Shown piece by piece: positions 43,660 through 63,596 of a stretch of DNA of 64,000 nucleotides. Position 1 is the first letter of the stretch. Every line of letters starts with the position of its first letter. The translations under genes were made by a program, and so were the position numbers. Below the pieces are notes generated by a model. It saw nothing but the letters and a program-made list of their open reading frames with translations. It was not told the DNA's origin and did no database searches. Source of the DNA: a virus (lineage: Duplodnaviria; Caudoviricetes); the IMG/VR virus record IMGVR_UViG_3300019874_000002, positions 54,720 through 118,719 of that record. The stretch is one strand, 5' to 3'.

Positions 43660-44408
43660 AGCAATGCCTTTACCACAGGCTTCATCGAATTTGCCATCGG
43701 CGGCTTGGCGTTAATCGGAGCCAATTGACCTTTAGGTGTCGGCGAAGGTTCCACGACTGGAGGTGCTTTTTGACCACCTTTTCCATACACCCAATCTGGC
43801 TTTGTGCCTTTCTCGATTCCTGCAGCTTCATACGCATCCTCTCCAACATGCATTCCGCCAGCCTTTAGGAAATCAAGCACGTCCTCGAGATCGTATTTGC
43901 GCTGCTTGCGTGGAGCGAAATGCATATCGCGAAGCGATTTGGCGACCCTATACGCGAGCGGCAACGGCTTGCCATCTCGCATCCGATCTGCCATCTCTTG
44001 CCCACAGTGCCTGGAGACTTCTCCTTGCGATTGCCATCGGAATTCGGACTTCACCATATCGCGCGTAATATCGCCTGCGATACGCTGAGCAATCGTCATA
44101 TCCTCATCGCCCAACGTGACGCGCTTCATTTGAATCATCGGCTCCATCGAGCCATACTCGTTCATCGTGCCAGGACTTCCGTTAACGCAAGGCGTAGCCA
44201 AATCGTCAATCTCGTCAGGCCCAAGCTCTGCAAGAGGTGCATAACCATACTTACGGTCAATACCGCTACCGCACAAAGCTGGCGCAGTACCAACCTCACA
44301 GGCTCCACCCTTTGCGGCGGCATTACCATCGTAATGAACGCAGCCTTCACATTTGCTGTTTGGAGTGACTGGTGTGCGTTGAATACGCAACTCTTGCAGA
44401 TCCATCAT
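43638..44408 (-). CDS. Head-cluster protein with N-terminal Cys cluster
   Basis: ATG 44408 overlaps upstream TAA; C..C.HY...C......C; MVKS, VAKS, IEKG, VVKA sites. Confidence 0.6.
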   Translation of the reverse strand: MMDLQELRIQRTPVTPNSKCEGCVHYDGNAAAKGGACEVGTAPALCGSGIDRKYGYAPLAELGPDEIDDLATPCVNGSPGTMNEYGSMEPMIQMKRVTLGDEDMTIAQRIAGDITRDMVKSEFRWQSQGEVSRHCGQEMADRMRDGKPLPLAYRVAKSLRDMHFAPRKQRKYDLEDVLDFLKAGGMHVGEDAYEAAGIEKGTKPDWVYGKGGQKAPPVVEPSPTPKGQLAPINAKPPMANSMKPVVKALLPFVKRQ

Positions 44409-44596
44409 TACTGAGGTCCTTCCTGCAGCGTACAGCTGAAATTGATACACGACCAATCATGTGTTGGGCATGTGCTAGCGTCACTCGGTCCACAGACATC
44501 GGACTCAGTTAACAAACGTCCACCATTAACAAAGCCAAACTTCTCAGTCGTGAGACTGCGAATAGTTTGCTTATTGAGATGTAGTGCTTTCTTCAC
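44408..44596 (-). CDS. Lanthipeptide-type RiPP precursor 1
   Basis: MKKALHLNKQTIRSL...VNGG then core with 4 Cys and many Ser/Thr; coupled to both neighbours. Confidence 0.75.
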   Translation of the reverse strand: MKKALHLNKQTIRSLTTEKFGFVNGGRLLTESDVCGPSDASTCPTHDWSCINFSCTLQEGPQ

Positions 44597-45030
44597 GTTG
44601 CTTCCCCTATGATTGCAACCTGCACGCGCGCAGGTGTTGTTGAGCTAGGATTTGAAAAGAATAATGCAGTGAGCGGAGCGATCACTGTCATCGGTCCCAT
44701 GAACACAATACCAGGCTGGGGATTCTTCTGGTACGGCAGAATTGGATCCGGTGTCGTCGCAGGATTTGGTTTCAAGCCAAGCGGCGATGATGTATTCAAA
44801 TTCACACGATAAGTAATCTCGCCTGACCAAACAATAATCAGCAAATATTTACCAGCTGCAACCTTCGGAAACACAACAGCTTGATTCGCAACACTCTGCG
44901 CAACAGTAACGATACCTCCATCCCACGTCGTTACTAGCGTGTCATCGATGATTTGGTTAAGATCCAAATCTCTGATCAACTGATCACTATCTTCTGACAA
45001 CAACGGTTTCAGTGTAACCATGAAACGCAT
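44593..45030 (-). CDS. Hypothetical, probable structural protein
   Basis: 145 aa, beta-rich, coupled to both neighbours. Confidence 0.5.
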   Translation of the reverse strand: MRFMVTLKPLLSEDSDQLIRDLDLNQIIDDTLVTTWDGGIVTVAQSVANQAVVFPKVAAGKYLLIIVWSGEITYRVNLNTSSPLGLKPNPATTPDPILPYQKNPQPGIVFMGPMTVIAPLTALFFSNPSSTTPARVQVAIIGEAT

Positions 45031-45239
45031 CAGGTATCGCCCTCACTCGCTAATATAGGGAGCTTTGGGAGCTTTGGGATATCCCTCCAAAACTTCGTCA
45101 CACCTCTACCAAACGTGAATGCGCTGATCATCTCCTTCATAGCTTCCATATCAATAAGAAACTTGTCAGGCAGAACTATAATCGGAGCACCGATAGCCTC
45201 ACCAAAACGACGACGTTTCCACAACGACGTCAAAGTCAC
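45030..45239 (-). CDS. WKRR-tagged small protein containing a major-capsid-like segment
   Basis: GGAGG RBS; TFGRGVTKFWRDIPKLP versus MCP TFSQGHMKLWKDIPKLP. Confidence 0.7.
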   Translation of the reverse strand: MTLTSLWKRRRFGEAIGAPIIVLPDKFLIDMEAMKEMISAFTFGRGVTKFWRDIPKLPKLPILASEGDT

Positions 45240-45439
45240 CTCAGACCTCCATTTTTCAAATCGGTATCCTCCAACCCATAAGCTTTTCTAATCATCCCAC
45301 TCTCTCCGGTAGCACGCATTGAACCACCACAATGACATTTGGTCCCCACCGTTGTCATCGTCGACGCGCCGCACGCGCCACAAGTGCAATCACGAATGGC
45401 TGATGATCGGTGGGGGGAACTGATCCGTGAGTTTGGCAT
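45236..45439 (-). CDS. Small zinc-ribbon protein
   Basis: CGACG...CHCGG; start at MPNSR assumed. Confidence 0.45.
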   Translation of the reverse strand: MPNSRISSPHRSSAIRDCTCGACGASTMTTVGTKCHCGGSMRATGESGMIRKAYGLEDTDLKNGGLR

Positions 45440-45716
45440 TTTCTGCAGCCTTTCTTTTACGGTCTTCGTTTTTCGTTTGCTCGACTTCTTCAGAATGCTT
45501 TTCAGCTGCGATCCTATCAAGCTCTTTCTGAGATTTCATCCCAGCAATTTGCATAAGAGTCATCGCTTGCTCTTTGCGATGTTCATTCAAAAGCGCAATC
45601 TCTTCACGTTCGTATGCTCTCTGAGCGTCGACAGCTTTCAACTCATTTAATTGAGCGTCCGCGACGAGCGAATAGAAATCGTCTGCGATCTCGTCATCGT
45701 CAAATTCTCCGCTCAT
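45390..45716 (-). CDS. Hypothetical helical protein
   Basis: 108 aa, coupled to upstream gene. Confidence 0.5.
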   Translation of the reverse strand: MSGEFDDDEIADDFYSLVADAQLNELKAVDAQRAYEREEIALLNEHRKEQAMTLMQIAGMKSQKELDRIAAEKHSEEVEQTKNEDRKRKAAENAKLTDQFPPPIISHS

Positions 45717-46003
45717 CCTACTTCAATCGCCTTAGCTTCAGAGATTGCCTTTTTGATAATGCTCACCAATTTCTCAGCATCTTCAATGCTCAACGCTGAT
45801 TCAACATGAACGTGTGTCGTCCCACAATGCAAATGAACGCACACTGCGCTAGCTTTCCCATTTTCAGACACAGACAAAATTCCGCCGTGCGCATGCCAAC
45901 CTTTTACAACAAGAGGGCTATCATACTTTCCCTGCGATAACGCGTTCTTGTTCCACGCGTTCCGCTCATTCACAAATTCAGTAGCTACTTCTGTGTTCGA
46001 CAT
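45713..46003 (-). CDS. Hypothetical protein
   Basis: 96 aa, AGGAG RBS. Confidence 0.5.
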   Translation of the reverse strand: MSNTEVATEFVNERNAWNKNALSQGKYDSPLVVKGWHAHGGILSVSENGKASAVCVHLHCGTTHVHVESALSIEDAEKLVSIIKKAISEAKAIEVG

Positions 46004-46004
46004 T

Positions 46005-46832
46005 TCAATCTCCTTTTATCTTCTTTTTTCGATTCCGATACGTGAGCTTCGTCGAAATCGTCTGCCCCTCTTCATCTTCCATCTGTGCGTCAATACTACC
46101 GTCTGGTGTTTGCGATGACAACACCGCCATTACCTCGAGTGCTCGGCCTCGAGTGTTCTTCCCTCCACCGAGGTGACCGACAAGCCGCGCAAGCTCTTTC
46201 TCTATCACCTCTCCGGCTCCTTGTCTCACGGTAAACTTCAAATCGAGGAGAGCATCGCTGTCGCTGGCGTCTCTCGTGAGAGGCTCTACACCAACCTCGT
46301 CGTCATCTGCGGCGATTGAAATAGTCTCCAATTCGAAATCAATACTGTTCAAATAGCTCTTAATCTCGTCCTCAGAATCAGGCAACCGCTCGGCTAGATA
46401 CTTTGCGTCAACATCATCGAACATCTTAATCATGTTCGCGAGATATTGCGGATACTTCTCCATATCAGGATCACCGCGATCGTAGTTCATTTGCGGTGTC
46501 ATCAGCATTGCACGCTTCGTACTGAGATACGAAACATCAACCTCAATCTCAGGATATCCCAAATCCTTGAACATTCGCCATCGGTGCTCGCCATCGATAA
46601 TCTGAAGAATTCGTTTCTTTCCAGGCCACGGCCGAACAGCAATCGGTGGAATACGCCCACCTTCCTCACGCGTCTCCTTCACAGCTAGCTTTGTTTTCTC
46701 GTACATCTGAGGAGACATTTTATTCATGTTCCATTTATTTGGACGACATGTCTCCAATGAAACAGTATGACCCCCTTCAGTCCAAACAGTTTTGGAAGGC
46801 TCATCTCCAAGATTAATCCTATAGACCTTCAT
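46005..46832 (-). CDS. ParB/Srx N-terminal domain protein
   Basis: PNKWNMN.M, PIAVR, QIIDGEHRWR, N..RG. Confidence 0.85.
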   Translation of the reverse strand: MKVYRINLGDEPSKTVWTEGGHTVSLETCRPNKWNMNKMSPQMYEKTKLAVKETREEGGRIPPIAVRPWPGKKRILQIIDGEHRWRMFKDLGYPEIEVDVSYLSTKRAMLMTPQMNYDRGDPDMEKYPQYLANMIKMFDDVDAKYLAERLPDSEDEIKSYLNSIDFELETISIAADDDEVGVEPLTRDASDSDALLDLKFTVRQGAGEVIEKELARLVGHLGGGKNTRGRALEVMAVLSSQTPDGSIDAQMEDEEGQTISTKLTYRNRKKKIKGD

Positions 46833-47182
46833 TTTTCAGATCGCACTTTGACGTAACCGCAAGCTGTTGCGATTTGGCCGCTTGTTCCTGGAAGCAAATT
46901 AGCCAAACGCAACCCACACTCTTTTGTAACAACAATCTCAACAACTCCTTGCTGATTCGTGGCCTCAAATAAACTCATTATAAATTCATTCAAATGATCA
47001 ACGAACGTTGTTGATAATCTTGGTGAAACTACCATCTGCTCCTCCGTTTGCGCGATAATCGGTTTACAGCTAAATTCGCAAGGTCGAATCGAAGTTATCG
47101 TCGGAAAATGCAAACCGTAATGCACGTTGTCTCTCGTCGCCACATGCTGCTCACACTTTGGGCAATATGGCATTGGCGTCAA
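46829..47182 (-). CDS. Hypothetical zinc-binding protein
   Basis: CPKC...H...C; ATGA-type overlaps. Confidence 0.45.
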   Translation of the reverse strand: MTPMPYCPKCEQHVATRDNVHYGLHFPTITSIRPCEFSCKPIIAQTEEQMVVSPRLSTTFVDHLNEFIMSLFEATNQQGVVEIVVTKECGLRLANLLPGTSGQIATACGYVKVRSEK

Positions 47183-47775
47183 TCTTTCGTATTCACAGGC
47201 AGCTCACCTTCACGTGAGGCGTGAATAAAGCTACGCGTAATCGTGTTTAGCCAAAGCCTCGCGTTCTCCCACGAATTCTGCAATACCGTTAGATCCAGAC
47301 CTTCCACGAAAACATACGTCAAAAACATAATCCTGGGAACTGGATTTTCAATAACGCATTCCGCGGAGATCTCGTGTCTCGGATTGCCTCCTCCAGAACA
47401 AATAATCCCCACCATATCAGCATTACAAATTTTGCATCTACGCTTCCCCTCCGGAAACAGAGGTATTGACATTGGTACAGCTAAACACGAAGTGACTCTC
47501 GGTTGAATTTGTTTTCCAAAACAATAATAATCATTGTGCCCATTAAACGTGTCAAACAGTTTGTTCAAACGGTTCGCAAAATCAGCTGATGCTTCTGGTG
47601 TCACTTCACGCACAATCCTCCCGTAGAAGAAGCACTCCTCCGAAAGAGACGTCCGTACATTTTTGAATATGTGACGCGCCCTATCTGACAAGTAAGGAGC
47701 AATCTTCGGCATCAAATCATCAACTCGAAGACTGTTCGCTGCAATCTGTGGCGTTGGATCATTACTGTTCGACAT
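47179..47775 (-). CDS. Hypothetical protein
   Basis: Start at MSNSND with GGAG RBS. Confidence 0.5.
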   Translation of the reverse strand: MSNSNDPTPQIAANSLRVDDLMPKIAPYLSDRARHIFKNVRTSLSEECFFYGRIVREVTPEASADFANRLNKLFDTFNGHNDYYCFGKQIQPRVTSCLAVPMSIPLFPEGKRRCKICNADMVGIICSGGGNPRHEISAECVIENPVPRIMFLTYVFVEGLDLTVLQNSWENARLWLNTITRSFIHASREGELPVNTKD

Positions 47776-48913
47776 GCGTCTCCTTCCGATCCCATTGCTT
47801 AACAATACGGCAAAACGTGCGGTAATTACTACGCACGAGATCTGGCTTATTAGGTCTATCGTCTTTCTCTAGATCACGCTCATTCCCATCTTCTTTCATC
47901 CTCTGGCCCCACAACGCCATGTACAGCGGTTTACCACTGACGTAGTAAACATCGCGCTCTCCAACGATACGACGCACATTATGGAAAAACGTTGGTGTTG
48001 ATGCACCCACAATCCAGAAGGCGACGTTTAATGGTGCAAAGCCATGCCAACGTTTAATCGCTTTCAGTACCCCAATCGAATTCCCTGTCTTTGCACTCCC
48101 TAGAAATTGCGCATTGAACATCACCTGAGGAACCTTTGCCAGAGCCTCCAGAATCAAATCCTCCAAACGCAATCCTGCACCATGATAGTACCCAGGATAA
48201 AAATGCGCCCTACTCCGCTCGAGCGCAACGCTCGTCCTGCAGAATTGATAATACTGATGCATCCGAGCGTCTGAATCGCCGTACGTCGAGAACGCCAAAG
48301 GCATCCAGTAGGAAATACCAACGCGCTCGTACAGCTCTGGATTATCGTAAAATTCAGCCTCCCATGCGCGCTCAAGCTGGTCATCGATATCCATCGTCGT
48401 CAGTATTATCTTCGTCTGCTTATTCAAACTCAAATAATCGTGCAAATCGTTTGAGACGAAACCCTTACCATTAGGCTGAGCTACCACCTTCATATTGGTA
48501 GCTATCACCTTGCTCTTTGCAAATGCATCTCCAGCAACACTCGCAAAATTGCATTTCTGTCCAAGCAATGCGATCGCCTTGGTCTTGAACGCCAGCCGAG
48601 GAACCTCCGAATAGGTATACTTTGGCGCATTCCAATTATTGGCGTTCTGCGTTACTGCATCGAGGTACATCTTTTTCAAGGGCGATCTACAGCAGATTGC
48701 GGTAACAGCGGCTTTATGTCCAGTGCAACTATGACACTCCTGGTAGCACCATTGAAATTCAGTGCTCAATCCGGCGCGATGCTTCTTCGTACAGCCTTCG
48801 CAACGTCCACCATTATTCACGTACAACGCACATTCACCACAATAGTCGTGCTGCGAACAATGCACCGGTTCGCGCTTCGTGTCTTGAATTACTTTAAGCT
48901 TTGGAAGATGCAT
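47762..48913 (-). CDS. Cys-rich N-terminal domain plus DUF4417-like domain
   Basis: Multiple CxxC; D..LE..W and WMPLAFSTYGD...YQFCRT resemble the DUF4417 PDFSxYxD...YR motif. Confidence 0.5.
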   Translation of the reverse strand: MHLPKLKVIQDTKREPVHCSQHDYCGECALYVNNGGRCEGCTKKHRAGLSTEFQWCYQECHSCTGHKAAVTAICCRSPLKKMYLDAVTQNANNWNAPKYTYSEVPRLAFKTKAIALLGQKCNFASVAGDAFAKSKVIATNMKVVAQPNGKGFVSNDLHDYLSLNKQTKIILTTMDIDDQLERAWEAEFYDNPELYERVGISYWMPLAFSTYGDSDARMHQYYQFCRTSVALERSRAHFYPGYYHGAGLRLEDLILEALAKVPQVMFNAQFLGSAKTGNSIGVLKAIKRWHGFAPLNVAFWIVGASTPTFFHNVRRIVGERDVYYVSGKPLYMALWGQRMKEDGNERDLEKDDRPNKPDLVRSNYRTFCRIVKQWDRKETHVEQ

Positions 48914-48922
48914 CGCACTTTA

Positions 48923-49117
48923 TCAATCTATTTTCTGCTTTGGCTCGTTCTTGTACAGATACGTACTTCCAGGTGGCAAGTGTGGTGGCCCCCCTCCGCC
49001 ACCGCCGCCACCTTTTCCAGGTTTCATCGCTTTCGATTTCGACCCTCCAGCGCCAGCTTTGACTTTCGCCTTTCCTACAGAAATCAATTTTGCTTTGGGT
49101 TTGATCTTGATCGCCAT
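48923..49117 (-). CDS. Small Lys/Gly-rich protein
   Basis: 64 aa, AGGAG RBS, Gly8 run. Confidence 0.55.
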   Translation of the reverse strand: MAIKIKPKAKLISVGKAKVKAGAGGSKSKAMKPGKGGGGGGGGPPHLPPGSTYLYKNEPKQKID

Positions 49118-49172
49118 GGTGTCTCCTTTGTTACCCGGTATTCGAGGGACCTTTATCGCACAAATTTGCTCG

Positions 49173-49627
49173 CTATACCAACTCGAGGTGTCCTGATCGT
49201 TGGAGGCTCCTCACAGCCAAACCCTCTTTCAAGAGAGCTTCCTGAAAACGCGTAACAGCCTTTGTATATTGAGTCACAGCACAGCTGCAGCGAGCCGTCT
49301 CTACTGAGACGTTTCTCAGCACATGCCCTGGCCCTCGCTTCTGGTGTGTGCAGATGTAGCGAGCATCTCCAGCGGATTGCATCTTCCCAACCTCATCTGC
49401 GGAGAGAGGCTTCTGCGTTACGAGGTAACCGCGCCCATAGCACTGGTTACATTTACTCTTTGCGTACAGCGTTGAATCTAGCAACAAACCTAAATCATCT
49501 CTAACTTCGATTGTACTCCCATCTACAAGCATTGTCGTATCAAGAGGCGAACCGACATTCAACCCAAGTTTCTTTCCAAGTGCGATTCGCTTTTCCAATT
49601 TCGATTCGTGATCAATCACAACGCTAA
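49173..49627 (-). CDS. Hypothetical zinc-finger protein
   Basis: CNQCYGRG...CSC; true start uncertain, just downstream of the upstream gene. Confidence 0.45.
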
Positions 49628-50016
49628 TCCTCCTTGTGCTTCGTACAACCGATATGTCCGCATGTCCAACACGTGTACAGATGTTCAATACTTCGTGTCA
49701 GCGGATCACTCAATGCTTCTAGTAACGCTACTTCATCACCACGAGTTTCTGCAGCACGCTTTTCAAGAAGAAACAAAGCTTCTCTCAACAAGACCAGCAC
49801 TCGAGCATTTACTTCGTGAGGTCTTTGCATGTCGACGTATTTTGATCTATCAATTAACGCTCTGATCACTTCCTGAGACGTCGTTCCTTCATAGGCTGGA
49901 GGCAAATTAAATGGGTATTGCTCACCGACCCTCTTTACAAACGTCAAGACGTTCGACGTTTCATCGCCGTCCAGCTGCTTCAATTGGTACCGATGTCCTG
50001 GGTCTAAGACTCTCAT
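49624..50016 (-). CDS. Tad1/Acb2-like putative immune-signal sponge
   Basis: PGHRY...LTF...GTTSQEVIRALIDR...P...NA....LREAL..LE.R parallels the Tad1 family pattern; by eye only. Confidence 0.45.
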   Translation of the reverse strand: MRVLDPGHRYQLKQLDGDETSNVLTFVKRVGEQYPFNLPPAYEGTTSQEVIRALIDRSKYVDMQRPHEVNARVLVLLREALFLLEKRAAETRGDEVALLEALSDPLTRSIEHLYTCWTCGHIGCTKHKED

Positions 50017-50146
50017 TTAACGCTTTCCACGATTGTACAGCATTATTCGTGTTCAATCTTTCGCTACAAGACGCTGCATGGACGCCGAAACGACTTGTAG
50101 ATTAGCCAGCGCAATCTCAACGCTAGAATCGAGGTTTCCGACGACG

Positions 50147-50196
50147 ATCCTAGAATTCTGCCTGAATCGCATTACCGATTGGCAGAATTCTAGGAT
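50147..50196. repeat. Perfect 16-bp inverted repeat with inner 5-bp stem
   Basis: ATCCTAGAATTCTGCC (50147-50162) / GGCAGAATTCTAGGAT (50181-50196); AATCG/CGATT inside the loop. Confidence 0.9.
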
Positions 50197-50280
50197 TGGT
50201 TTGCTTGGTCTGCACATTTGAAAAACCGACTTGGTTCGTTTGGTCCGGAAGTCGAATTCGTCGAACGCGCGCATAATGCG

Positions 50281-50499
50281 CGTCAGAATATCTTAACTAG
50301 TAAATAAGTAAATTAATAGCTCGGAGCTAAAGCTCCTCGCTACAAGAAACCTGACAGAAGCCTGACAAGTTATTAACATATGTTTCCGAGATCACAGCGA
50401 AATAGTGGTTTGTCAGGATCACACATTAGTAGTTCAATTCTGACACATTGATTTTCACCAAACTGCGCTCTCAAATCGCATATGTCAACATAGTGTCAG
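50281..50499. promoter_or_regulatory. AT-rich non-coding region with CTGACA repeats (candidate origin or packaging site)
   Basis: CTGACA at 50351, 50362, 50440; TGTCAG at 50411, 50494; AT tract at about 50288-50318. Confidence 0.45.
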
Positions 50500-51143
50500 T
50501 TATTCTCCGTTGCTTTCGCGATTACCGTCCCACCTCTATCCTCATACTTTTCCTTTCCAATGAAGACGCTACGACACAGCTCTACAACGTCTCTATCATT
50601 AGAATAGGCAAGCCAATGAACAGCGGAACAAATCCGGCTAATGACTGCACCGAACTGTTCTTTATAGTTCATCAACTTTTTAGGTTCATAGATCGCATCC
50701 ATCTCAATCTCGAATTTCATCGTGATATGAGCAAGCAATCCTACAACCTTCAAAAGAGCGATAAAACCATCACCACCTTCCGGCATGATAATCGCATTGG
50801 GATTAAATTCAGAAGCTATCGTCCAGAAGTCTAATTGTAAATTTGTACAAACTAGACAGAGATCGATCATGATGTGAGCCAGCGCATTATCAACGCGCGA
50901 AATGTCTCCGGTGTCCATCGCAGACAATAGCTCATAATTAGCCTCTTCAATAATCCCCAACACGATACAAGCCGTCGGATCATCGGATGACGCTCTAACC
51001 TGGCGCTGGATGACTTGTATTGCTTCAATCTGATTTGAAGGAACAAACATCCCTGAGGCTATAGCCCCCACCCATCGGTCAAATACTTCACTGGCGAGTA
51101 CAACTCTATCTTGGTCAGCTTGTGTCACTTCAATCTCAATCAT
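50496..51143 (-). CDS. MazG-like all-alpha protein (degenerate)
   Basis: LGIIEEANYELLSA...VDNALAHIMIDL..VC..L.LD; GGAGG RBS. Confidence 0.4.
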   Translation of the reverse strand: MIEIEVTQADQDRVVLASEVFDRWVGAIASGMFVPSNQIEAIQVIQRQVRASSDDPTACIVLGIIEEANYELLSAMDTGDISRVDNALAHIMIDLCLVCTNLQLDFWTIASEFNPNAIIMPEGGDGFIALLKVVGLLAHITMKFEIEMDAIYEPKKLMNYKEQFGAVISRICSAVHWLAYSNDRDVVELCRSVFIGKEKYEDRGGTVIAKATENN

Positions 51144-51176
51144 TTGAAAACCTCCTTCATCCGTACGATCGTTTAT

Positions 51177-51872
51177 TCACCAACCAGCGCGAGCGAGACC
51201 GCCAGGATAGATTACCGCACTAATGTCGGTCTTTCCGATTGGGCTCGTCGCTGGATAATGAGCGAGATAGCTCTCCCCATCTCCATCATATTGCCACATC
51301 ACGACATCCTGTAGATCCCATCCAATGCGCTCATAGACCTGATGCGGCAACGTCGACGCATATCGAGCAATCCACAAATTGACACAACCCATATGATCGG
51401 TGATGCCTTTATCATAAAGCAACGATCCACCATACAACGTCGGACGAACACCCAGTGCACTATGGATTCCATCCGCGATTGGGGTAACACAGTCGATGAT
51501 TTGATTAGCTGAGCAGTCTGGATTGTCTGCTCTCTCCACATCTAGGATTGGCCTAAAATCTCCCCTTTGGTCAAAACCTCCAGCAGCCTCTACTGTCGTC
51601 AAATAGAAAATGAGCTGCTTCTTCCAATCCTCCATAAAGTGAACATAGTGATAGGCTCCGCGGCGCCAGGTCTTGCCGAAGCGATCGCCAGCTACCGACC
51701 GTGCCTTATCCCAATAACGCGGAAACCACGAACCAGACCCCCAATTCACGCCTTCTGTAGCCTTCAGGATAATCCCTGACCATGGCATGCCGGCCGCGGC
51801 GAGCTTTGGCAAATCGAGAACGCCACCTAGATCACGTGAGTACACATCCACGATCAATGGGTCGATCACCAC
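51177..51872 (-). CDS. Endolysin, GH25 muramidase
   Basis: IVDVY, ILKATEG, RGAYHY, PILDVE, LWIARY, MWQY. Confidence 0.92.
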   Translation of the reverse strand: MVIDPLIVDVYSRDLGGVLDLPKLAAAGMPWSGIILKATEGVNWGSGSWFPRYWDKARSVAGDRFGKTWRRGAYHYVHFMEDWKKQLIFYLTTVEAAGGFDQRGDFRPILDVERADNPDCSANQIIDCVTPIADGIHSALGVRPTLYGGSLLYDKGITDHMGCVNLWIARYASTLPHQVYERIGWDLQDVVMWQYDGDGESYLAHYPATSPIGKTDISAVIYPGGLARAGW

Positions 51873-51874
51873 GA

Positions 51875-52509: not shown

Positions 52510-52517
52510 TTAGATCC

Positions 52518-55073: not shown

Positions 55074-55433
55074 TCAAACCTCATAACCAAGAACACAAGA
55101 CCTTTTAGGCGCAACCTCTACAACAGAACTATGAAGATTGGTCTTCTCTGGAGATCCCCATTTAATAATGGAGCGCCCACTCTCCTTCTCCCATTGACTT
55201 GCGGACAGTATCTCAAAAGTCAATCCGCTGATGTTGTCTACAATCTCGTCATTTGAGATACCCTTGTTTCGCATCTCTGAAATTAATACAGAGGTTGGGT
55301 CCTCTCCTCTTGTGTGGAGAACCCAATACGAAAGAACGTCTCTCTGCTGATTTCCCCTAACCCAGAAACGAGAAACTACGTACTGGTTTAGAGGACTTTG
55401 AAAACGTTCGGTTCCTGCTTTAACTCCAAACAT
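55074..55433 (-). CDS. Hypothetical protein
   Basis: Start MFGVK coupled (TAATG) to a 50-aa ORF at 55433..55585. Confidence 0.45.
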   Translation of the reverse strand: MFGVKAGTERFQSPLNQYVVSRFWVRGNQQRDVLSYWVLHTRGEDPTSVLISEMRNKGISNDEIVDNISGLTFEILSASQWEKESGRSIIKWGSPEKTNLHSSVVEVAPKRSCVLGYEV

Positions 55434-55584
55434 TACAACCACCGACCCTTCCTCTTGAGCGCTATGCACTTTATACCAGCTTGCGAAGCCCTGATCTTTG
55501 CCTCCTCGCTATTACGCCGCACCCTCTTCACCAAATCACGAATCTGCCCCTCTGTCATCGGTTGAGGGGCTAATACGTCAATCA

Positions 55585-55815
55585 TTATAACGTCCTCCCT
55601 TTAATACGATCACACGTACGAGCATTATGTCCTTCTTGTTTACACAATCGACATCGGTAGCGTTTAGCGTCAATTGGACGATTCTCACGCCAAGAGGACA
55701 GACGTTGCTCACGGTGTTTGAATTTGCACCGTGGGCAAAGTCTGCCCTCTCTAACACGACGTGGGCACCAAAGACACTTCTTCGATTGCAAGATCTTTGG
55801 CGCCGCTACCTTCAC
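55585..55815 (-). CDS. Zinc-finger plus CCHC zinc-knuckle protein
   Basis: CLWC...CPRC and CRLCKQEGHNARTC. Confidence 0.65.
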   Translation of the reverse strand: MKVAAPKILQSKKCLWCPRRVREGRLCPRCKFKHREQRLSSWRENRPIDAKRYRCRLCKQEGHNARTCDRIKGRTL

Positions 55816-56234
55816 GTACTAAACTCGCTCAACCCCGGTGGGGTGGTAGAGATTAGGACTTGCTCTGTTGCATTGGTCAAAAGCCCCAAAGTGACTTTGC
55901 GACGCGCAACAGTAATCCACCGATCACGGCTAACTTGAGGAAGGCTAGACCACTCAACACCGGACATCGGCGTCTCAAAGGTTTCCATGTACGCCTGGTA
56001 CAAATCAATTGCCAGGTCAATCATCACGACATTAATGTTGTTCGTTTGTACAACCTGGTCAGCATTCAATGTTCTAACACCGATTTCCATTCCCTCAAAG
56101 CTACGTTCCGCAACAACGTTCAGTTCCTTTTTATCAACGTCAAAAGACGCGTACCATGCAATCTCTTTGGTCGCTTTGTCTTCTATAACGATTCGTACAG
56201 TTTGCTTTGAATTCATCTGCTCCTGCTTTTGCAT
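55812..56234 (-). CDS. Hypothetical protein
   Basis: C-terminal LY.AY...W..LP...RDRW pattern; start uncertain. Confidence 0.45.
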   Translation of the reverse strand: MQKQEQMNSKQTVRIVIEDKATKEIAWYASFDVDKKELNVVAERSFEGMEIGVRTLNADQVVQTNNINVVMIDLAIDLYQAYMETFETPMSGVEWSSLPQVSRDRWITVARRKVTLGLLTNATEQVLISTTPPGLSEFST

Positions 56235-56238
56235 AATT

Positions 56239-56442
56239 TCAATGATTGGTGCAGGTGGCAAACCATGACGGTACAGGGATGGTCGTGCATCCGCATGCCG
56301 TATTGTTATCTGTGTCCCCAGTCGAGACGCACGCCGTCGCTAACCGAAGATGGGAATCCGCTAGCCCACCTACAGCGCGACGAAGACTAACACTGCTCAG
56401 ACTGCGAACGGTTTCACGCTTGATCTGTAGTTTCTTTTGCAT
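56239..56442 (-). CDS. Lanthipeptide-type RiPP precursor 2
   Basis: Internal ATG 56442 of the 188-aa track ORF: MQKKLQIKRETVRSL...AVGG, core with 4 Cys; 67 aa. Confidence 0.75.
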   Translation of the reverse strand: MQKKLQIKRETVRSLSSVSLRRAVGGLADSHLRLATACVSTGDTDNNTACGCTTIPVPSWFATCTNH

Positions 56443-56450
56443 GGGCGTTC

Positions 56451-56654
56451 TCAAAACGTAATCGTTTGGCCTGGACAGTCCCAGCTTGGGCATTGGTTTG
56501 AGCAGACGTCGCACGACATCTGACCGCTCGGCGTATCGCCACAGCAGAACGAGTCCATTGTCTTCACCTTGATTCGATCGCCACCGCCGTAAATACTGCG
56601 CATGGTGTGGAGCAATCGGATAGTCTCTCGCTGCAATGTCAGCTTCTTTTTCAC
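56451..56654 (-). CDS. Lanthipeptide-type RiPP precursor 3
   Basis: MKKKLTLQRETIRLL...IYGG, core with 6 Cys; GTGA overlap with upstream gene. Confidence 0.78.
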   Translation of the reverse strand: MKKKLTLQRETIRLLHTMRSIYGGGDRIKVKTMDSFCCGDTPSGQMSCDVCSNQCPSWDCPGQTITF

Positions 56655-56900
56655 TTTCCATTCTCCTTGGTAGCAGCTGCCTTTTTGGATTTGCTACGCT
56701 TCCTATTCTTCGGCGTCGCTTTCGATTTGGCCTTCGGAAATTTTTGCACGTAAGCTCGCACCAACTTATCGGTGAGCGGTAGGGTTTGGTCTTCAACGCC
56801 CACACCGCCTTGTCCTAGCGCTACGTTGAGCGCATGGATCGCCATGTCCTTTGCGAGCATTGAAGCCTTGTGCACAAATCCACCTACCACTTGTCGCATC
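56651..56900 (-). CDS. Hypothetical protein with basic tail
   Basis: C-terminal part of the 116-aa track ORF; true start uncertain. Confidence 0.4.
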
Positions 56901-57045
56901 TCTTCCTGAATCGTCACCTTTGCATCTCCTTCTGAGGACGAAGTGTCCCATACCCAAACGGTCCAGTATCCTACAAGAAAAGGCAAGGTCCACCAACACA
57001 TTTGTTGTTGACGGCTGCAAGCTCGTGATGTATCAACGGAATCCT

Positions 57046-57420
57046 ATGGGCACTGCTTCTATTTGGAAACGACGACAAGCCGAGCGACCACGCCAGAATT
57101 TAGACCCAATTGCTCAACTAAAATCAGACGGATGTCTCCCGGTAGTGAGCGCTGAAATCCATGTGGCACCGACGCCCAAAAATCCAACATTAATATCTAT
57201 GAAATCGTCGTATCATCCACCAATTGCACTTTGCAAATTACCGATACCTATTTTATTGACAGCAGTCCTCACATTCCAAAGAGATTTTGATATTTTATCG
57301 CCACCGCTAACCGGAATAATAACAGTCACTTGGTATAAACAAAGCATCCGATGTTTACATTGTTGGGAGATCGTAAAACTCGATCCAAAATGGAGTGGGA
57401 GATTTCTCTTTGAGGATTAA
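57046..57420 (+). CDS. WKRR-tagged H-C-CxxC protein
   Basis: Internal ATG of track ORF 56851: MGTASIWKRR...IHV...ALCK...RCLHC. Confidence 0.6.
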   Translation: MGTASIWKRRQAERPRQNLDPIAQLKSDGCLPVVSAEIHVAPTPKNPTLISMKSSYHPPIALCKLPIPILLTAVLTFQRDFDILSPPLTGIITVTWYKQSIRCLHCWEIVKLDPKWSGRFLFED

Positions 57421-57480
57421 ACAAAACAAAACGCTCGATGATTTCGACATCGAGCGTGGACATATTGAAACTTGGATTTA

Positions 57481-57717
57481 TCAGATCAGAGGCGTAACAA
57501 CAGCGATTGTCGCAGCAATCGACGAGCTAAGCGCGGCTAGCGCAACTTGCACTGTTTCCAACGTCAGCGTCTCTGCGAGCGTCAGTGTACCTCCAGCAAT
57601 GAGCGCAGCGATCTGCGTAGCCAGAGCTGAGATTTGCGCAGCAATTGGCGTCACTGTTTGGAGAACCGCTTGCAACACCGTAGAGACGTCAACCGATACC
57701 GATACTTTACTCGACAT
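57481..57717 (-). CDS. Small hydrophobic Ala/Thr/Val-rich protein
   Basis: 78 aa, GAGGA RBS, downstream of the CCC-motif gene. Confidence 0.55.
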   Translation of the reverse strand: MSSKVSVSVDVSTVLQAVLQTVTPIAAQISALATQIAALIAGGTLTLAETLTLETVQVALAALSSSIAATIAVVTPLI

Positions 57718-57757
57718 ACTATTTCTTCCTCATTTACGCTTTGGGTGCAGCAATTGG

Positions 57758-58705
57758 TTAGCCAGCGCCAACAGGAATGGTCACCGGAATCAGCCGCTGC
57801 GTCGCAACAAGCTGAGCACGAAGTTGCTCGATCGTGTTGTTGTTGATCAGACCACGCGTAGCATTTCCATCCGCCGTGATCAGAGCCTTCAGTTCACAGC
57901 AGCACTCCGCCGCTTGCGCCGCTGCAGTCGCAGCAATCTGCTGAGCGCGCAGCTCTGCCGCTGCAGCATTCTTGGCAATCTCCACATTGAGAGCGTAGAA
58001 GTTTTTCGTCGCTTCGACGCTCAGCGCATTTGCATTCGTGGTCGCCTGCAGCCCCAGCGCCGCCGAGTTTTTGGCCGCATCAAGCGAAGCGCGACCCTCG
58101 ATCTGATAGCTGATCGCCTGAGCATCCTTGAAACCGACGACAGTAGCTGTCGCGGTGTCAGAGAGCTGCTTCTGCAGAGCGCAAAGCTCCGACGTCGTGC
58201 GCTCCGACGCATGGCTCACAGCGCCGCGCGTCTTGTCGAAGCCATCACACAGCCGATCGTGAACCTGGCCAAAACCAGATTGCACAATGCCGTCGGTGCG
58301 GCAAGACGTGCTCTGAACCAGCTGGTCAGTGTGACAAGCTGCAACAGCTGCAGCCGCTGCAGCCGAATTGGTGACGCCTGCCAGATCGAAACGCGTGTCT
58401 TTGACGTCGCGCATTGTCGTCTGAGCATCGACCGCAGCGCCGCGACCGAATGCGGCTTGCTCGCGCGCAATCAGCTCATCGAGATGATTGCGATGCTCGA
58501 AACCCCAGCCGTGATGGCCGTGATTACGATGTCCATCTTCGGTAGAAACAACAACTGCTCGCGGATCTTGGTTGATAACGGTGCTGTCCATATTGAGTGT
58601 CTCCTGATTGCAAAATTGTTCGAGACCCTCCTGGCCAGCATCGTCCAAGACGATTTCAAGATTGATTTCGTCTTCTGCGATGATGCTTGGTTTTCTTGGC
58701 GCCAT
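57758..58705 (-). CDS. Ala-rich coiled-coil protein with ECCCE motif
   Basis: AAQAAECCCELKALI...ATRGLI; GC-rich coding; start may be 58705 or 58591 (GGAG RBS before MDSTV). Confidence 0.65.
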   Translation of the reverse strand: MAPRKPSIIAEDEINLEIVLDDAGQEGLEQFCNQETLNMDSTVINQDPRAVVVSTEDGHRNHGHHGWGFEHRNHLDELIAREQAAFGRGAAVDAQTTMRDVKDTRFDLAGVTNSAAAAAAVAACHTDQLVQSTSCRTDGIVQSGFGQVHDRLCDGFDKTRGAVSHASERTTSELCALQKQLSDTATATVVGFKDAQAISYQIEGRASLDAAKNSAALGLQATTNANALSVEATKNFYALNVEIAKNAAAAELRAQQIAATAAAQAAECCCELKALITADGNATRGLINNNTIEQLRAQLVATQRLIPVTIPVGAG

Positions 58706-58753
58706 AGAGTGCTCACCATTTGTATAAAGCAATCGCGTATCAATACACCTACC

Positions 58754-58787
58754 TTGGGGCCAAGTATCCTACGTTGGGGCCAAGTAT
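58754..58787. promoter_or_regulatory. Tandem operator-like sites TTGGGGCCAAGTAT x2
   Basis: Copies at 58754-58767 and 58774-58787, 20-bp period, each containing the dyad TTGG-NN-CCAA, in a divergent intergenic gap. Confidence 0.55.
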
Positions 58788-58857
58788 GTTTGGCCGCACC
58801 CAGCGAATTGCAAACTTATGACGCGCTGACGACGCCTCCCCGAGGCAATATCCGCCC

Positions 58858-59037
58858 ATGTCGCGTGCTTGGGTGGCGAACGAAGCAAATGGGCTTTACC
58901 ATTCGTGTGGGCGCCCTCGCGGCGCCAAACGCAAAAACAAAACGCGATGCACTGATTGCGCTAAACGAGACGCTGCTTACGACACTCGCAAACGAGAAGC
59001 GAAGCGTAAAGCAAAACTCGCGCAATCAAGCATCTAG
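58858..59037 (+). CDS. Small basic zinc-finger protein (59 aa)
   Basis: Hand-translated MSRAWVANEANGLYHSCGRP...RCTDCAKR...; below the track cutoff. Confidence 0.5.
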   Translation: MSRAWVANEANGLYHSCGRPRGAKRKNKTRCTDCAKRDAAYDTRKREAKRKAKLAQSSI

Positions 59038-59052
59038 CATCGGCGGTGGGTT

Positions 59053-59316
59053 GTGACATTCGCGGCGCTGTGGAAGCGCTACGCGGATCGAAGATTGCTA
59101 AAAAGCAATTTTCGATCTAAATCCCACATCCTTGTTAGCTACATAACCCAATACAAAGACCTTCGATCTAAAAAAATTAACCTATTGTGTAAAATTGATA
59201 GACGATTAATTAGAAATTCAGCTATTATTGAGTGGCATCTAGAAAGCGGTCATCCGACATGTTGCGCACTGTGTTTCGAGAGTATGAAGGCATACTCACT
59301 TCCAGGAGGAGATTAA
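59053..59316 (+). CDS. WKRR-tagged H-C-CxxC protein
   Basis: MTFAALWKRY...SHIL...LLCK...CALC. Confidence 0.6.
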   Translation: MTFAALWKRYADRRLLKSNFRSKSHILVSYITQYKDLRSKKINLLCKIDRRLIRNSAIIEWHLESGHPTCCALCFESMKAYSLPGGD

Positions 59317-59320
59317 AAAA

Positions 59321-59884
59321 GTGCATGTAATTGTAGCAGACGCAAGTTTGAAAAAAGGTGTATGTGGAATCGGAGTTGTCCTAGTAAATGAATATGGTCA
59401 TGAAGTAACGAGACACCAAGAAAAGCTCACCGCGATTTCGCATTCGCACGACGCTGAGCTAAACGCGATTAGAGTTGGTATTCAGAAGTTTGGGCACATC
59501 AGCCAATTGATTTACAACGATTGTAGAAAGGCTATCCAATTAGCCAGGCACGCGGTCTGGCGTTTACCTGACGTGCGCATCGAATGGATGCCTGAACACT
59601 TGAGAGGAACCTATTTGCATTTTGTGGCTCACGAGCTGAGCGTCATGGCCAGGAGAATCAAGATGATTTACGTCAAGCACACAACGCCAAGTCTCTCTCC
59701 GAGGTACCGAGGATATCCATCGATTAAAGAAGCCATTGAAGCGGTCTGCAAAGCTTCGCACGAACCTTCAGAAGATATCAGGCTGGCGCTCTTTAATACA
59801 GAACCATCGCTGTTCAAACTTGGAGAGGATGAATGGTCTGTCATCTCGGAGGAAGAATTTACAAAGATGGACGACCGACCGTGA
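59321..59884 (+). CDS. RNase H-like protein with C-terminal extension
   Basis: ADAS...GIGVV, AELNAI, IYNDC, IEW; an internal AGGAG-ATG at 59663 suggests a second start. Confidence 0.75.
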   Translation: MHVIVADASLKKGVCGIGVVLVNEYGHEVTRHQEKLTAISHSHDAELNAIRVGIQKFGHISQLIYNDCRKAIQLARHAVWRLPDVRIEWMPEHLRGTYLHFVAHELSVMARRIKMIYVKHTTPSLSPRYRGYPSIKEAIEAVCKASHEPSEDIRLALFNTEPSLFKLGEDEWSVISEEEFTKMDDRP

Positions 59885-60231
59885 ATATCATCGAACAAAT
59901 AGAAGCACTAACTGAACTGTACCGTTTGCAATTGGGACTCATCGCTTGGGAAGATTTTCAAACAGCAGCTGAGATCAACAACAATCAAAAGAAGATAAAC
60001 AGCCACACTCAATCAGGGAGAACTGAACGAGACATCTTACGCGCGATCGCTGCCTGCACCATGACCAATGTCAAATACATCGCTGTACTTGAAGACTGCA
60101 ATCGAACGTACAGAAAGCGAATCTACAAGCGACTAGAGAATCTCAATTTGCTAGACATCCGTGTCATATGGCATTCGGAATACATCGGCCCTTGTGTTCG
60201 CTACCTGGACCACTCCAACTCCAATGGATGA
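59881..60231 (+). CDS. Hypothetical protein
   Basis: GTGA overlap with upstream gene; QSGRT resembles a degenerate P-loop. Confidence 0.45.
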   Translation: MNIIEQIEALTELYRLQLGLIAWEDFQTAAEINNNQKKINSHTQSGRTERDILRAIAACTMTNVKYIAVLEDCNRTYRKRIYKRLENLNLLDIRVIWHSEYIGPCVRYLDHSNSNG

Positions 60232-60415
60232 TAGATTCAGCCCACCGATGCTTAGGCAAACGCAATTAAACTTGTGCGTTCCTAGCAAGAATGACTTTGT
60301 ACTGTATTGTCGTGAATGCCCTTGGGTGGGTCAAACCAACGCGGCACACGCACGATCGTCTAAATGCCCTGTTTGCGATAACCACAGCATTAGGATTTGG
60401 AAGCATGTTTCGTAA
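60225..60415 (+). CDS. Small zinc-ribbon protein
   Basis: CRECPWVG...CPVC. Confidence 0.5.
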
Positions 60416-60944
60416 ACAAACCTCCACTCAAACCGCTGAGCGATTCATCGCGCTATATACGCGTCCGATTTCTCCACCAAGCATCAGCCCAGAGTTTGGG
60501 ACAACCTACTTTTGGCGCAATCCACCACGCTGCAATCGTTGTCACCAAGAAGGCCACAGGCGCAAGCACTGCCAGAACATGTGCTCGCCCTACACCAAAG
60601 GAGAGAAGGCAGCTCGCTGGGCAATCACCTATGGTAAAAGCCGCATTGAAGCGGCTGCCCAATTCGGCATCAACCCACTGACTGTGGAGCGTGCTCGGCA
60701 CAGCTTGAGATTGCCGAGATTCCTCGAGTCCCCTATCAAGAGGCGACCTCCCAAAGTACCCCTATTCGTAAGGCGCTCGATTCGGAATATTGGCTGGGCA
60801 GCGGTTCTCTGGATGACAGCCAAGCCAGACGAGCGACTAATCCAAGAGACCCTTTGCTTCTGCTGTCCCCAATTTAGCTGCACGAAGTGTCAGCCAAAGG
60901 CGAACAATCATGCCTCTCAAAGTATTGTGGGCGCGACGAGCTAA
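60405..60944 (+). CDS. CCHC zinc-knuckle plus HTH-like protein
   Basis: CNRCHQEGHRRKHC; SRIEAAAQFGINPLTVERA; start at MFRKQ assumed. Confidence 0.55.
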   Translation: MFRKQTSTQTAERFIALYTRPISPPSISPEFGTTYFWRNPPRCNRCHQEGHRRKHCQNMCSPYTKGEKAARWAITYGKSRIEAAAQFGINPLTVERARHSLRLPRFLESPIKRRPPKVPLFVRRSIRNIGWAAVLWMTAKPDERLIQETLCFCCPQFSCTKCQPKANNHASQSIVGATS

Positions 60945-61098
60945 CAAAAAAGAGCGGCGCACCTTCAAAGATGGAAACGAAGGTGCGCCGCTCCATTCGG
61001 ACACATTACACTTTTCAAACTTAGCAGACTTAGGTCGATCGTTATCCATTTTTTACGGATCCAACCTTACGACCTTTACGACGACGAAGAAGGATTAA
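60910..61098 (+). CDS. Small protein with WKRR-like tag
   Basis: MPLKVLWARR. Confidence 0.4.
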   Translation: MPLKVLWARRANKKERRTFKDGNEGAPLHSDTLHFSNLADLGRSLSIFYGSNLTTFTTTKKD

Positions 61099-61149
61099 TC
61101 TACTTCGCAGCCGTGCGAATGGTTTCACTCCTGAGTAGCAATCTCTTCT

Positions 61150-61335
61150 TCATTTGAACATTACTCTCTTCTGAAGATTGTCCAACGTCTCTGCATTGCG
61201 TGAAGTAAATCTATCCGGTTTGGCGCCGTAATCCGTTTGGTAGCTTCGATGCCAGGTGCTATCGAGCATTGGTCCACGCGGACGCCAAACAATTAGCAAC
61301 ATCCAAACCCACGCACATACAACAGCTGCGATCAC
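61150..61335 (-). CDS. Small membrane-anchored protein
   Basis: N-terminal hydrophobic stretch; directly follows precursor 4. Confidence 0.4.
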   Translation of the reverse strand: MIAAVVCAWVWMLLIVWRPRGPMLDSTWHRSYQTDYGAKPDRFTSRNAETLDNLQKRVMFK

Positions 61336-61341
61336 TGTTGC

Positions 61342-61554
61342 TCAACAAGTCCCTGAACAGTGCGGCGACTCACTGACACAAGACGGATTTTGAAACGTCA
61401 CGCATGCGTTCAGAGGCCGACTGTCACAGAGGTCGCTGCACGTCCCTGCAATGGTATTGTAGGGAGGTTCACCTCCATGTACCGAGCCGAGATGGGTGAG
61501 CACGCGGATCGTCTCGCGCTTCAAAGACAGATTCAATCGATTGAGCTTCTTCAT
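61342..61554 (-). CDS. Lanthipeptide-type RiPP precursor 4
   Basis: MKKLNRLNLSLKRETIRVL...VHGG, core with 6 Cys ending HCSGTC. Confidence 0.8.
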   Translation of the reverse strand: MKKLNRLNLSLKRETIRVLTHLGSVHGGEPPYNTIAGTCSDLCDSRPLNACVTFQNPSCVSESPHCSGTC

Positions 61555-61571
61555 TTTCTTTCAGTTTCCTT

Positions 61572-61790
61572 TCACGTTTCCAATGTTGCCTTCTGACAAG
61601 CATCAATTAAAGTAATCAAGGCTTGTTTAGCATCTCGAGACGTCGGTGTGGGCAATTGAATAATTCGCCCTCCACACGAGATGAAGTTTATCGCAGCTTC
61701 GGCAATGTTTAATACTACAAGCCATCGGTCAAATACCTCATCAGTTTGGTCAAGCAACTCATGGCGCAATTGCTGGATGAGTACGGTCAC
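61572..61790 (-). CDS. Hypothetical protein
   Basis: 72 aa, GGAGG RBS, GTGA overlap. Confidence 0.5.
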   Translation of the reverse strand: MTVLIQQLRHELLDQTDEVFDRWLVVLNIAEAAINFISCGGRIIQLPTPTSRDAKQALITLIDACQKATLET

Positions 61791-62065
61791 TTTATTCCTC
61801 CTTGTGGGACTAGACGCGCAGTCTGATTACTAAAATACGCAAAACGACGTGCACACAGTAGACACTTTGTCCGATGATTCTCCGCATCAAACGACATCCA
61901 CGTTACCGATGCCATGTCAAATTGCCGAACGTGACAGAGCTGTAGCGGAATGGTCTCGATGAACTGATCTTGAAAGCTAGCACGTGAATCGTCGCTAATA
62001 TCTTTTACAACGATGTGCACAAAAGTAAACTGTAAACGACGTTTCCACAGCGCTGCTAGAGTCAT
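61787..62065 (-). CDS. WKRR-tagged H-C-CxxC protein
   Basis: MTLAALWKRR...VHIV...QLCH...KCLLC. Confidence 0.65.
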   Translation of the reverse strand: MTLAALWKRRLQFTFVHIVVKDISDDSRASFQDQFIETIPLQLCHVRQFDMASVTWMSFDAENHRTKCLLCARRFAYFSNQTARLVPQGGIK

Positions 62066-62346
62066 CGTGCTACATCCATAACTTCTACTTTCAATATCAC
62101 ATGAGGTTTATAATAAATATTTTCACAATTTTTACAGCTAATGGGTTGCTGATACTTTTTAACTTCAACAACCAATTTATCGTTGTCCCACCATGTCGAA
62201 CTATAATACTGTTCTCGATGTTCTTTGAAAAAATCCTCTGAATCGAATGCCTCACACAGTGTAACACTGGGGTACTTGTGCAGAAGGATGTGAACAATAA
62301 ACTGGTTGCTCACACCACGACGTTTCCAAAGCGTTGATAGAGTCAT
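62062..62346 (-). CDS. WKRR-tagged H-C-CxxC protein
   Basis: MTLSTLWKRR...VHIL...TLCE...SCKNC. Confidence 0.65.
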   Translation of the reverse strand: MTLSTLWKRRGVSNQFIVHILLHKYPSVTLCEAFDSEDFFKEHREQYYSSTWWDNDKLVVEVKKYQQPISCKNCENIYYKPHVILKVEVMDVAR

Positions 62347-62643
62347 TCAACCGCGTCCAATTGTGCTTCGCTGCGCAACGTACTCACGCCAGCATTCGAT
62401 TGCTTGCTCATTTAATGTTTGTTCGCCCCACGCTGCAACGTGCTTAGGCATCGAGGTCAGCCATTTGTCTAGCTCCTGTTCTGTTGGAGCATGCGAGAAA
62501 TGGAACCGAAGTGCCGCACGTTTGAAGCCGGCAACGAATGCATTGCGTTGGAGAGTACATTGCGAGCAAAGGTCTGCCTCGATTGGTTTTGAAATGTCCC
62601 ATTCGGCACCACAAGCAAAGCAGCTCATTTTAATCAGCTCCAT
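62347..62643 (-). CDS. Zinc-finger protein
   Basis: CFACG...CSQC. Confidence 0.55.
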   Translation of the reverse strand: MELIKMSCFACGAEWDISKPIEADLCSQCTLQRNAFVAGFKRAALRFHFSHAPTEQELDKWLTSMPKHVAAWGEQTLNEQAIECWREYVAQRSTIGRG

Positions 62644-62789
62644 TTATTCACAGCCAAGCAAATCCACAGCGATTACATTTGCTCATTAAATTGTCCAGTA
62701 GTTCGTGAGGACACTTTGCCTTACACCTTGGACATGGCATATCGATGACGGTTCGCTTCGGTTCGGTACCTCTAGACATACGTCGAAGG

Positions 62790-62828
62790 TCAACACATTT
62801 TCTCCTCTGTGTCAAGAAAATGTGTTGA
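62790..62828. promoter_or_regulatory. 14-bp inverted repeat in a divergent intergenic region
   Basis: TCAACACATTTTCT (62790-62803) / AGAAAATGTGTTGA (62815-62828). Confidence 0.65.
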
Positions 62829-62865
62829 AAAAATCAATGGCTCCTGATTCAATTAGGAAGACCTT

Positions 62866-63291
62866 ATGAAGCACATTAAACAACCAACGAAAACCAGCTG
62901 TGGTCAAACATGCCTAGCAATGATTGCAGGCATTACACCGGAAGAGGTTTTCAAACTTCTCCCTGACACCTCCGAAGGAGCGCGCCCTAAGCAATTGAGA
63001 GCAATCGCACCACTGCTCGGCTTCTTGCTCGGTAGACCTGGCAAAACTCCCCTTGTCATAAAGCCACGAGGTGTTTTCATTGCACGTGTAATCATCCCAA
63101 TCCAAGGCGTTAGGTCTCGACGTGGTTGGACTATGACCAGTCATTTTATTGTTTACGATTGCAATCCTCGTGCACCAATCATTCACGACCCTAGTCAAAA
63201 TCAAAGAGAGAACGCTATCTCGTACCTGTCTCGACTGGAACAAGAACACAGCAGATTGATTAGCCTGATGCGTGTCTGGTACATGCTGTAA
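62866..63291 (+). CDS. Stand-alone C39-family cysteine peptidase
   Basis: HIKQPTKTSCGQTCLAM (oxyanion Gln and catalytic Cys), HFIVYD (His), IHDPS (Asp); AGGA RBS. Confidence 0.82.
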   Translation: MKHIKQPTKTSCGQTCLAMIAGITPEEVFKLLPDTSEGARPKQLRAIAPLLGFLLGRPGKTPLVIKPRGVFIARVIIPIQGVRSRRGWTMTSHFIVYDCNPRAPIIHDPSQNQRENAISYLSRLEQEHSRLISLMRVWYML

Positions 63292-63514: not shown

Positions 63515-63596
63515 ACACCTCAATTATGGTGAACCGTGTGCTAATAGCGTGGCATACACCTCAATTATGGTGAACCGTGTGCTAATAGCGTGGCAT
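63515..63596. repeat. 41-bp exact tandem duplication
   Basis: ACACCTCAATTATGGTGAACCGTGTGCTAATAGCGTGGCAT x2. Confidence 0.9.

Follow-up and report, generated by a model that had tools for sequence, protein, structure and literature searches.

A gene for a lanthipeptide precursor is usually taken to belong to a bacterial gene cluster. Why, then, should a phage carry several genes of this type and none of the enzymes that would mature their products? The question is raised by IMG/VR virus record IMGVR_UViG_3300019874_000002, a phage genome of 118,719 bp that CheckV rates as complete, whose 3' half (genome positions 54720-118719, 64,000 nucleotides) is the stretch of DNA analysed here and is called the window below. 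The best explanation, to which we give a probability of about 0.55 on the strength of sequence comparisons, is that these genes are real, expressed and under selection in the phage, and that they encode precursors of the class I lanthipeptide (LanA) type, which would be matured by host machinery.

The peptide family and its leaders

The initial annotation of the window described four minus-strand open reading frames (ORFs) that share a leader and a Gly-Gly site and whose otherwise unrelated cores contain 4-6 Cys. All four were found as described, at the positions listed in Table 1, but the set was incomplete: the whole phage carries six intact family members (pep1 to pep6) and one truncated remnant, four of the intact genes and the remnant lying inside the window. 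In pep1 to pep5 an LxLxKx5L-type motif is followed by Gly-Gly about 24-28 residues from the N-terminus; in pep6 the box has diverged and the GG is kept. A leader hidden Markov model (HMM) trained on bacterial peptides alone was run on 2,284 six-frame segments of the phage and on 20 shuffled genomes. Five phage peptides took the top five places among the phage segments, with 14.8-31.1 bits, and the maximum reached across the shuffled genomes was 11.8 bits. The peptide family is far beyond chance, and the remnant downstream of pep4, which ranks sixth with the same model, is a decayed paralogue.

Among 18,950 NCBIfam models, the best match for five of the six peptides is NF038153 (lant_leader_L1a, the class I lanthipeptide leader; curated cutoff 22 bits), with 11.5-17.8 bits each. 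The residues that precede the GG are hydrophobic at position -4 in all six phage leaders and at -7 in five of them, as is usual in double-glycine (C39) substrates; the bacterial set is 91% hydrophobic at each of positions -4, -7, -12 and -15. In Bacteroidetes, class I LanAs are described whose leader has the LxLxKx5L motif, ends in GG and is cleaved by C39 (PMC7268733). With these pinensin-type precursors (NF038153) the phage peptides share the motif and length of the leader, the GG site, the -4/-7 hydrophobic pattern, a core length of 34-43 residues, richness in Cys and Ser/Thr, and the occurrence as multi-copy paralogue sets. They differ from them in being encoded by a lytic-type phage genome without LanB, LanC, LanT or an immunity gene, in being scattered among phage operons rather than clustered, and in scoring below the cutoff of the curated HMM. 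The second half of the phage leaders is also less acidic than in the bacterial set.

In bacteria, the leader's closest relatives are linked to LanB and LanC. When 185,579 species genomes were scanned with a pattern, one match was confirmed, a peptide with a near-identical leader in a metagenome-assembled genome labelled Fibrobacteraceae, where it is encoded 340 bp upstream of LanC (121.8 bits); a LanB (588 bits) is encoded at another place in that genome. The family profile matches 7 of 208 genomes of the same phylum, the highest copy number in one genome being 16. Five of the seven (G002, G009, G022, G085 and G095) encode the peptides, often in arrays, at a distance of no more than about 6 kb from LanC and/or LanB. 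One further relative (P0035) also adjoins a LanC. Another one, P0032 (L075:10001-10162), on a bacterial ENA contig and labelled Lant_leader_dom, has no LanB or LanC within 10 kb, indicating that orphan precursors occur in bacterial genomes too. A leader-pattern scan of metagenome contigs and a pep1-core-pattern scan of metagenome and viral contigs yielded nothing new. These comparisons support homology of the phage peptides to class I lanthipeptide precursors that have an LxLxKx5L...GG leader. The class I leader identity proposed at the outset therefore holds as far as homology to LanBC-linked bacterial peptides goes, with the reservation that the curated leader model scores them below its cutoff.

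Table 1. Positions of the peptide genes and of other features (window coordinates, unless given as genome coordinates)
Feature	Position	Strand	Description
pep1	44408..44596	-	62 aa: 26-aa leader ending GG, 36-aa core, 4 Cys, 9 Ser/Thr
pep2	56239..56442	-	67 aa: 26-aa leader, 41-aa core, 4 Cys
pep3	56451..56654	-	67 aa: 24-aa leader, 43-aa core, 6 Cys
pep4	61342..61554	-	70 aa: 28-aa leader, 42-aa core, 6 Cys
pep5 and pep6	genome 12265-12447 and 12444-12620		tandem, outside the window; from the six-frame leader-HMM search of the genome
Truncated member	61100..61153	-	17 leader codons, then TAG; 7.8 bits with the bacteria-derived HMM
C39-fold cysteine peptidase	62866..63291	+	stand-alone, 141 aa; Q6, C12, H93, D108-P109
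Terminator-like hairpin	57431-57457	-	10 pairs, T-run
AAA+ protein (L009)	genome 10492-12234	-	580 aa, outside the window
MTLxxLW(K/R)R-tag ORFs	45030-45239, 61787-62065, 62062-62346, 63524-63838	-	
MTLxxLW(K/R)R-tag ORF	59053-59316	+	
187-aa ORF	59321-59884	+	opposite strand; sub-threshold RVT_3 match
15-bp tandem repeat	~63860-63960		five units

The starts of pep1, pep3 and pep5 overlap the stop codon of the preceding gene by 4 bp (GTGA or ATGA), which ties the peptide genes into phage operons. The start codon of pep1 and pep3 is GTG; that of pep3, which has an AAGGAG ribosome-binding site, overlaps the stop of an upstream 116-aa ORF, and pep2 starts 9 nt past the pep3 stop. The 67-aa ATG-start reading of pep2 lies within a longer, 188-aa GTG frame, which is probably spurious. 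Promoter and terminator scans stayed at chance level. The strongest terminator-like hairpin of the region is located just upstream of the operon formed by the 116-aa ORF, pep3 and pep2, which suggests a transcription unit boundary at this place. Should the record be circularly permuted, the C39-like gene described below and all but one of the six peptide genes fall within about 20 kb across the record ends.

Composition of the cores and selection on pep1

In length and composition the phage cores agree with the bacterial ones: the length is 38.5 residues in the phage and 36.4 in the bacterial set, the share of Cys 12.1% and 11.6%, and that of Ser+Thr 21.6% and 18.0%, while the phage proteome as a background has 1.6% Cys and 13.2% Ser+Thr. 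A Ser or Thr lies 2-7 residues upstream of 27 of the 28 Cys in the six phage cores (90 of 93 in the bacterial set), so placed that thioether rings could form. Pairwise identity between the cores of the four window ORFs is 18-33%, and similarity between phage and bacterial cores is limited to short motifs such as CPSWD (E of at least 0.02).

The core of pep1 is found again in two orthologues, P0004 and P0005, on phage-like contigs that have 69% and 61% GC (49% in this phage) and whose other genes have no similarity to this phage. Between pep1 and these orthologues 24-25 of 28 core residues are identical, with all four Cys and every Ser/Thr kept save for one Thr/Ser swap; the proportion of synonymous differences (pS) is 0.68-0.89, synonymous sites being saturated, and that of nonsynonymous differences (pN) 0.09-0.14. 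These values show strong purifying selection on the pep1 core in phage contigs whose GC content runs from 49 to 69%. The leaders of the same orthologues share only 10-12 of about 30 residues. The constant leader and variable core taken initially as a hallmark of such precursors hold only among paralogues; in the orthologues of different phages the core is conserved and the leader diverges. Leader similarity did not significantly track the genome rather than orthology (47.1% vs 44.5%, permutation p = 0.23). In addition, an unrelated complete phage of 95.7 kb (G001) carries two family members, the leader of one being 77% identical to that of pep4, and contig L005 carries two in tandem. Together with P0004 and P0005, these occurrences place the family in at least four phage backgrounds. 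The cores of the phage relatives contain 5-7 Cys, odd counts of 5 and 7 included.

Missing enzymes, a stand-alone peptidase and neighbouring genes

The absence of a maturing enzyme or transporter, first reported for the window, extends to the whole phage genome, in which nothing matches LanB (PF04738), LanC (PF05147), a radical-SAM enzyme or an ABC ATPase. A tblastn search with LanB and LanC from the bacterial loci with the same leader gave no phage match better than E = 0.5, its positive control having worked, and no family related to RiPPs (peptides that are made by ribosomes and modified after translation) was found among 20 large proteins of the other genome half or among the neighbours of every peptide gene. 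Since the maturing enzymes are absent from the phage, the peptides most likely depend on the machinery of a host.

One candidate for a leader peptidase is nevertheless encoded 1.3 kb from pep4, a 141-aa protein that matches Peptidase_C39 (PF03412) with 19.3 bits (E = 0.001, cutoff 22) over its N-terminal part only. Some 20 small relatives, likewise stand-alone, came out of an exhaustive search. Q6, C12, G13, H93 and P109 are invariant across 19 of them, PF03412 is the sole Pfam family matched by these relatives (7 of 19), and the profile of the family finds PCAT1, LahT-type and ComA transporters by their peptidase domains. The AlphaFold2 model of the protein is confident (mean predicted local distance difference test score, pLDDT, 94.4), and the top ten Foldseek matches are the PCAT1 peptidase domain (template modelling score 0.58-0.68), then LahT150 and ComA; 6mpz and 3k8u are matched as well. 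The invariant residues, the profile matches, the model and its structural matches together identify the protein as a C39-fold cysteine peptidase. It has the fold and the conserved Gln/Cys/His/Asp of the C39 domains of PCAT/AMS transporters (PCAT1, LahT, ComA); unlike them it stands alone, with no ABC transporter and a Pfam score below cutoff, and its family usually occurs without GG-leader peptides.

That family corresponds to phrog_4049, whose function is unannotated, and all the relatives are on phage-like contigs. No family peptide was found at 27 further viral loci with the peptidase (L046-L072, 440 kb, 32-69% GC) or in five whole phage records, and the phage G001, which has family peptides, has no such C39 peptidase. 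In a distant relative of the phage (L013) the peptidase gene keeps its place near the terminase, and the 7.9-kb contig holds no family peptide. A dedicated module made of the peptidase and the peptides was considered and rejected, as each occurs without the other, and the link between the two is weak. The hydrophobic -4 and -7 positions of the phage leaders make cleavage by some C39 enzyme plausible, and it is possible that the 141-aa protein acts as a leader peptidase.

The other neighbours of the peptide genes have no Pfam or PHROG function, with the exception of the AAA+ protease-like protein directly downstream of the pep6/pep5 tandem (270 bits with a PHROG 'ATP-dependent protease'), for which no link to the peptides was shown. 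The accessory region that holds the peptides also holds a second family of small proteins, with the N-terminal tag MTLxxLW(K/R)R. An RNase H-like RVT_3 match of 18.9 bits, under the threshold of 21.6, was obtained for a 187-aa ORF of the opposite strand, and no tRNA gene was found in the window. At the very end of the record a 15-bp unit is repeated five times in tandem and is open in several frames; it may be a terminal or packaging-related repeat. The genome, with a GC content of 48.9% and nearly all of its genes on the minus strand, encodes a gpA-type large terminase, RecA, a family A DNA polymerase and SbcCD-like and CobT/CobS-like proteins. No tyrosine integrase was found in the phage, whose lifestyle is apparently lytic, and no close relative was found among the deposited phages searched.

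What the peptides may do

In the explanation that we favour, the phage would make LanA-type substrates during infection, host LanB and LanC would bind the leader, dehydrate Ser and Thr and form thioether rings, and a double-glycine (C39) peptidase would cut after the GG, either a host LanT or possibly the 141-aa phage enzyme. Once mature, the peptides would be exported by the host or set free at lysis, and would serve as a weapon against competing bacteria or interfere with a lanthipeptide pathway of the host. This explanation is built on the homology of the leaders, the composition of the cores, the selection on one of them and the absence of enzymes, from which we infer the chemistry, the cleavage enzyme and the role. 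Several observations weigh against it. All five NF038153 scores are under the 22-bit cutoff and pep6 has no match. The Cys counts of the six phage cores are all even (4, 4, 6, 6, 4 and 4), which disulfides would also fit. A lytic cycle leaves little time for a multi-step maturation. Moreover, no host was found by DNA search: the window gave only 30-nt matches at chance level against the 208 genomes of the LanBC-bearing phylum, and the DNA of L005 and L012 gave against the same genomes low-complexity matches common to dozens of them. The LanBC-bearing genomes have 60-68% GC against 48.9% for the phage, a gap that makes those found unlikely hosts. Extended beyond this phage, maturation by the host would mean that unrelated phages carry precursor sets fitting the LanB and LanC of their hosts, so that infected cells make ring peptides specified by the phage. 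We hold this wider proposal, in which the peptides would be freed at lysis as weapons or signals, or would disable a lanthipeptide-based defence inside the cell, as tentative, with odds somewhat short of even.

The main rival is that the peptides stay unmodified, the leader serving only for C39 cleavage or export (by the phage enzyme or a host PCAT) and the cores folding by disulfides or metal binding, like class II bacteriocins or peptide signals, without any lanthionine chemistry. It would account for the C39-fold peptidase of the phage, in which the Gln/Cys/His/Asp set is intact, for the absence of a modification enzyme from the phage, for leaders that keep their -4/-7 pattern and for an even number of Cys in every core. 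It accounts less well for the LanBC linkage of the closest bacterial relatives of the leader, for cores that resemble those of lanthipeptides in their Ser/Thr enrichment and in having Ser/Thr upstream of nearly every Cys, and for the odd Cys counts of the phage relatives; in other phages, moreover, the C39 peptidase and such peptides are not found together. On balance we regard it as unlikely, at roughly one chance in five.

The peptides could also act as pseudo-substrates that occupy or jam host LanB, LanC or LanT, and thereby block a host lanthipeptide that harms the phage. Class I lanthipeptide clusters with an anti-phage function, acting inside the cell, are documented (10.1101/2024.06.26.600839; PMC12360287), which is why a counter-defence role is retained; multiple peptides with leaders like those of the host would increase the dose, and the phage carries none of the enzymes. 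The published anti-phage lanthipeptides are, however, actinobacterial and of another leader type. A decoy made of the leader, an option offered in the initial annotation, needs no core at all, while six distinct cores are maintained here, the single leader-only copy is a decayed remnant, and in pep1 it is the core and not the leader that is conserved between phages, under strong purifying selection. The conservation of the pep1 core alongside a diverging leader argues against pure leader decoys, and we consider pseudo-substrates somewhat less probable again than unmodified peptides. As for chance ORFs or decaying passenger genes without function, the truncated copy and flanking genes all of unassigned function are what they would leave; the selection on the pep1 core, the translational coupling to neighbouring genes, the presence of members in at least four unrelated phage backgrounds and HMM scores far over the shuffled controls are not, and this reading, already disfavoured, is very improbable.

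Among known systems, maturation of the phage peptides by a host would recall the prochlorosins, for which one enzyme set, that of ProcM, serves many diverse precursors, some of them encoded far from the enzyme gene. The prochlorosins are class II, with an NHLP-type leader, and their precursors and enzyme belong to one bacterial genome. As with them, one genome here holds several precursors whose leaders are related and whose cores are not; unlike them, the precursors are viral and the enzyme, if any, would be the host's. Prophage-borne RiPP or bacteriocin clusters are also known, for instance that of sublancin on SPbeta (10.1101/2020.10.01.322628). In both cases the precursor of a ribosomal peptide is encoded by a phage, but the temperate SPbeta has the complete cluster, with enzymes, transporter and immunity, whereas only substrates are present here and no integrase was found. 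No paper on orphan class I LanA families in phages was found in the literature, in which the known phage cases are complete prophage clusters. What this phage adds is the six-member family, the selection on a core common to unrelated phages, and a leader type that in bacteria is tied to LanBC. The phrog_4049 family of stand-alone C39-fold peptidases is a second, separate lead.

If maturation by host enzymes is true, the peptide genes would define a new class of phage auxiliary genes, in which the template is supplied by the virus and the chemistry is borrowed, and their products would be naturally diversified, ready-made substrates for class I lanthipeptide enzymes. This would also connect to the recent finding of class I lanthipeptides as an anti-phage defence, and it would mean that viruses can reprogramme the peptide-modifying machinery of their hosts just by supplying new templates.

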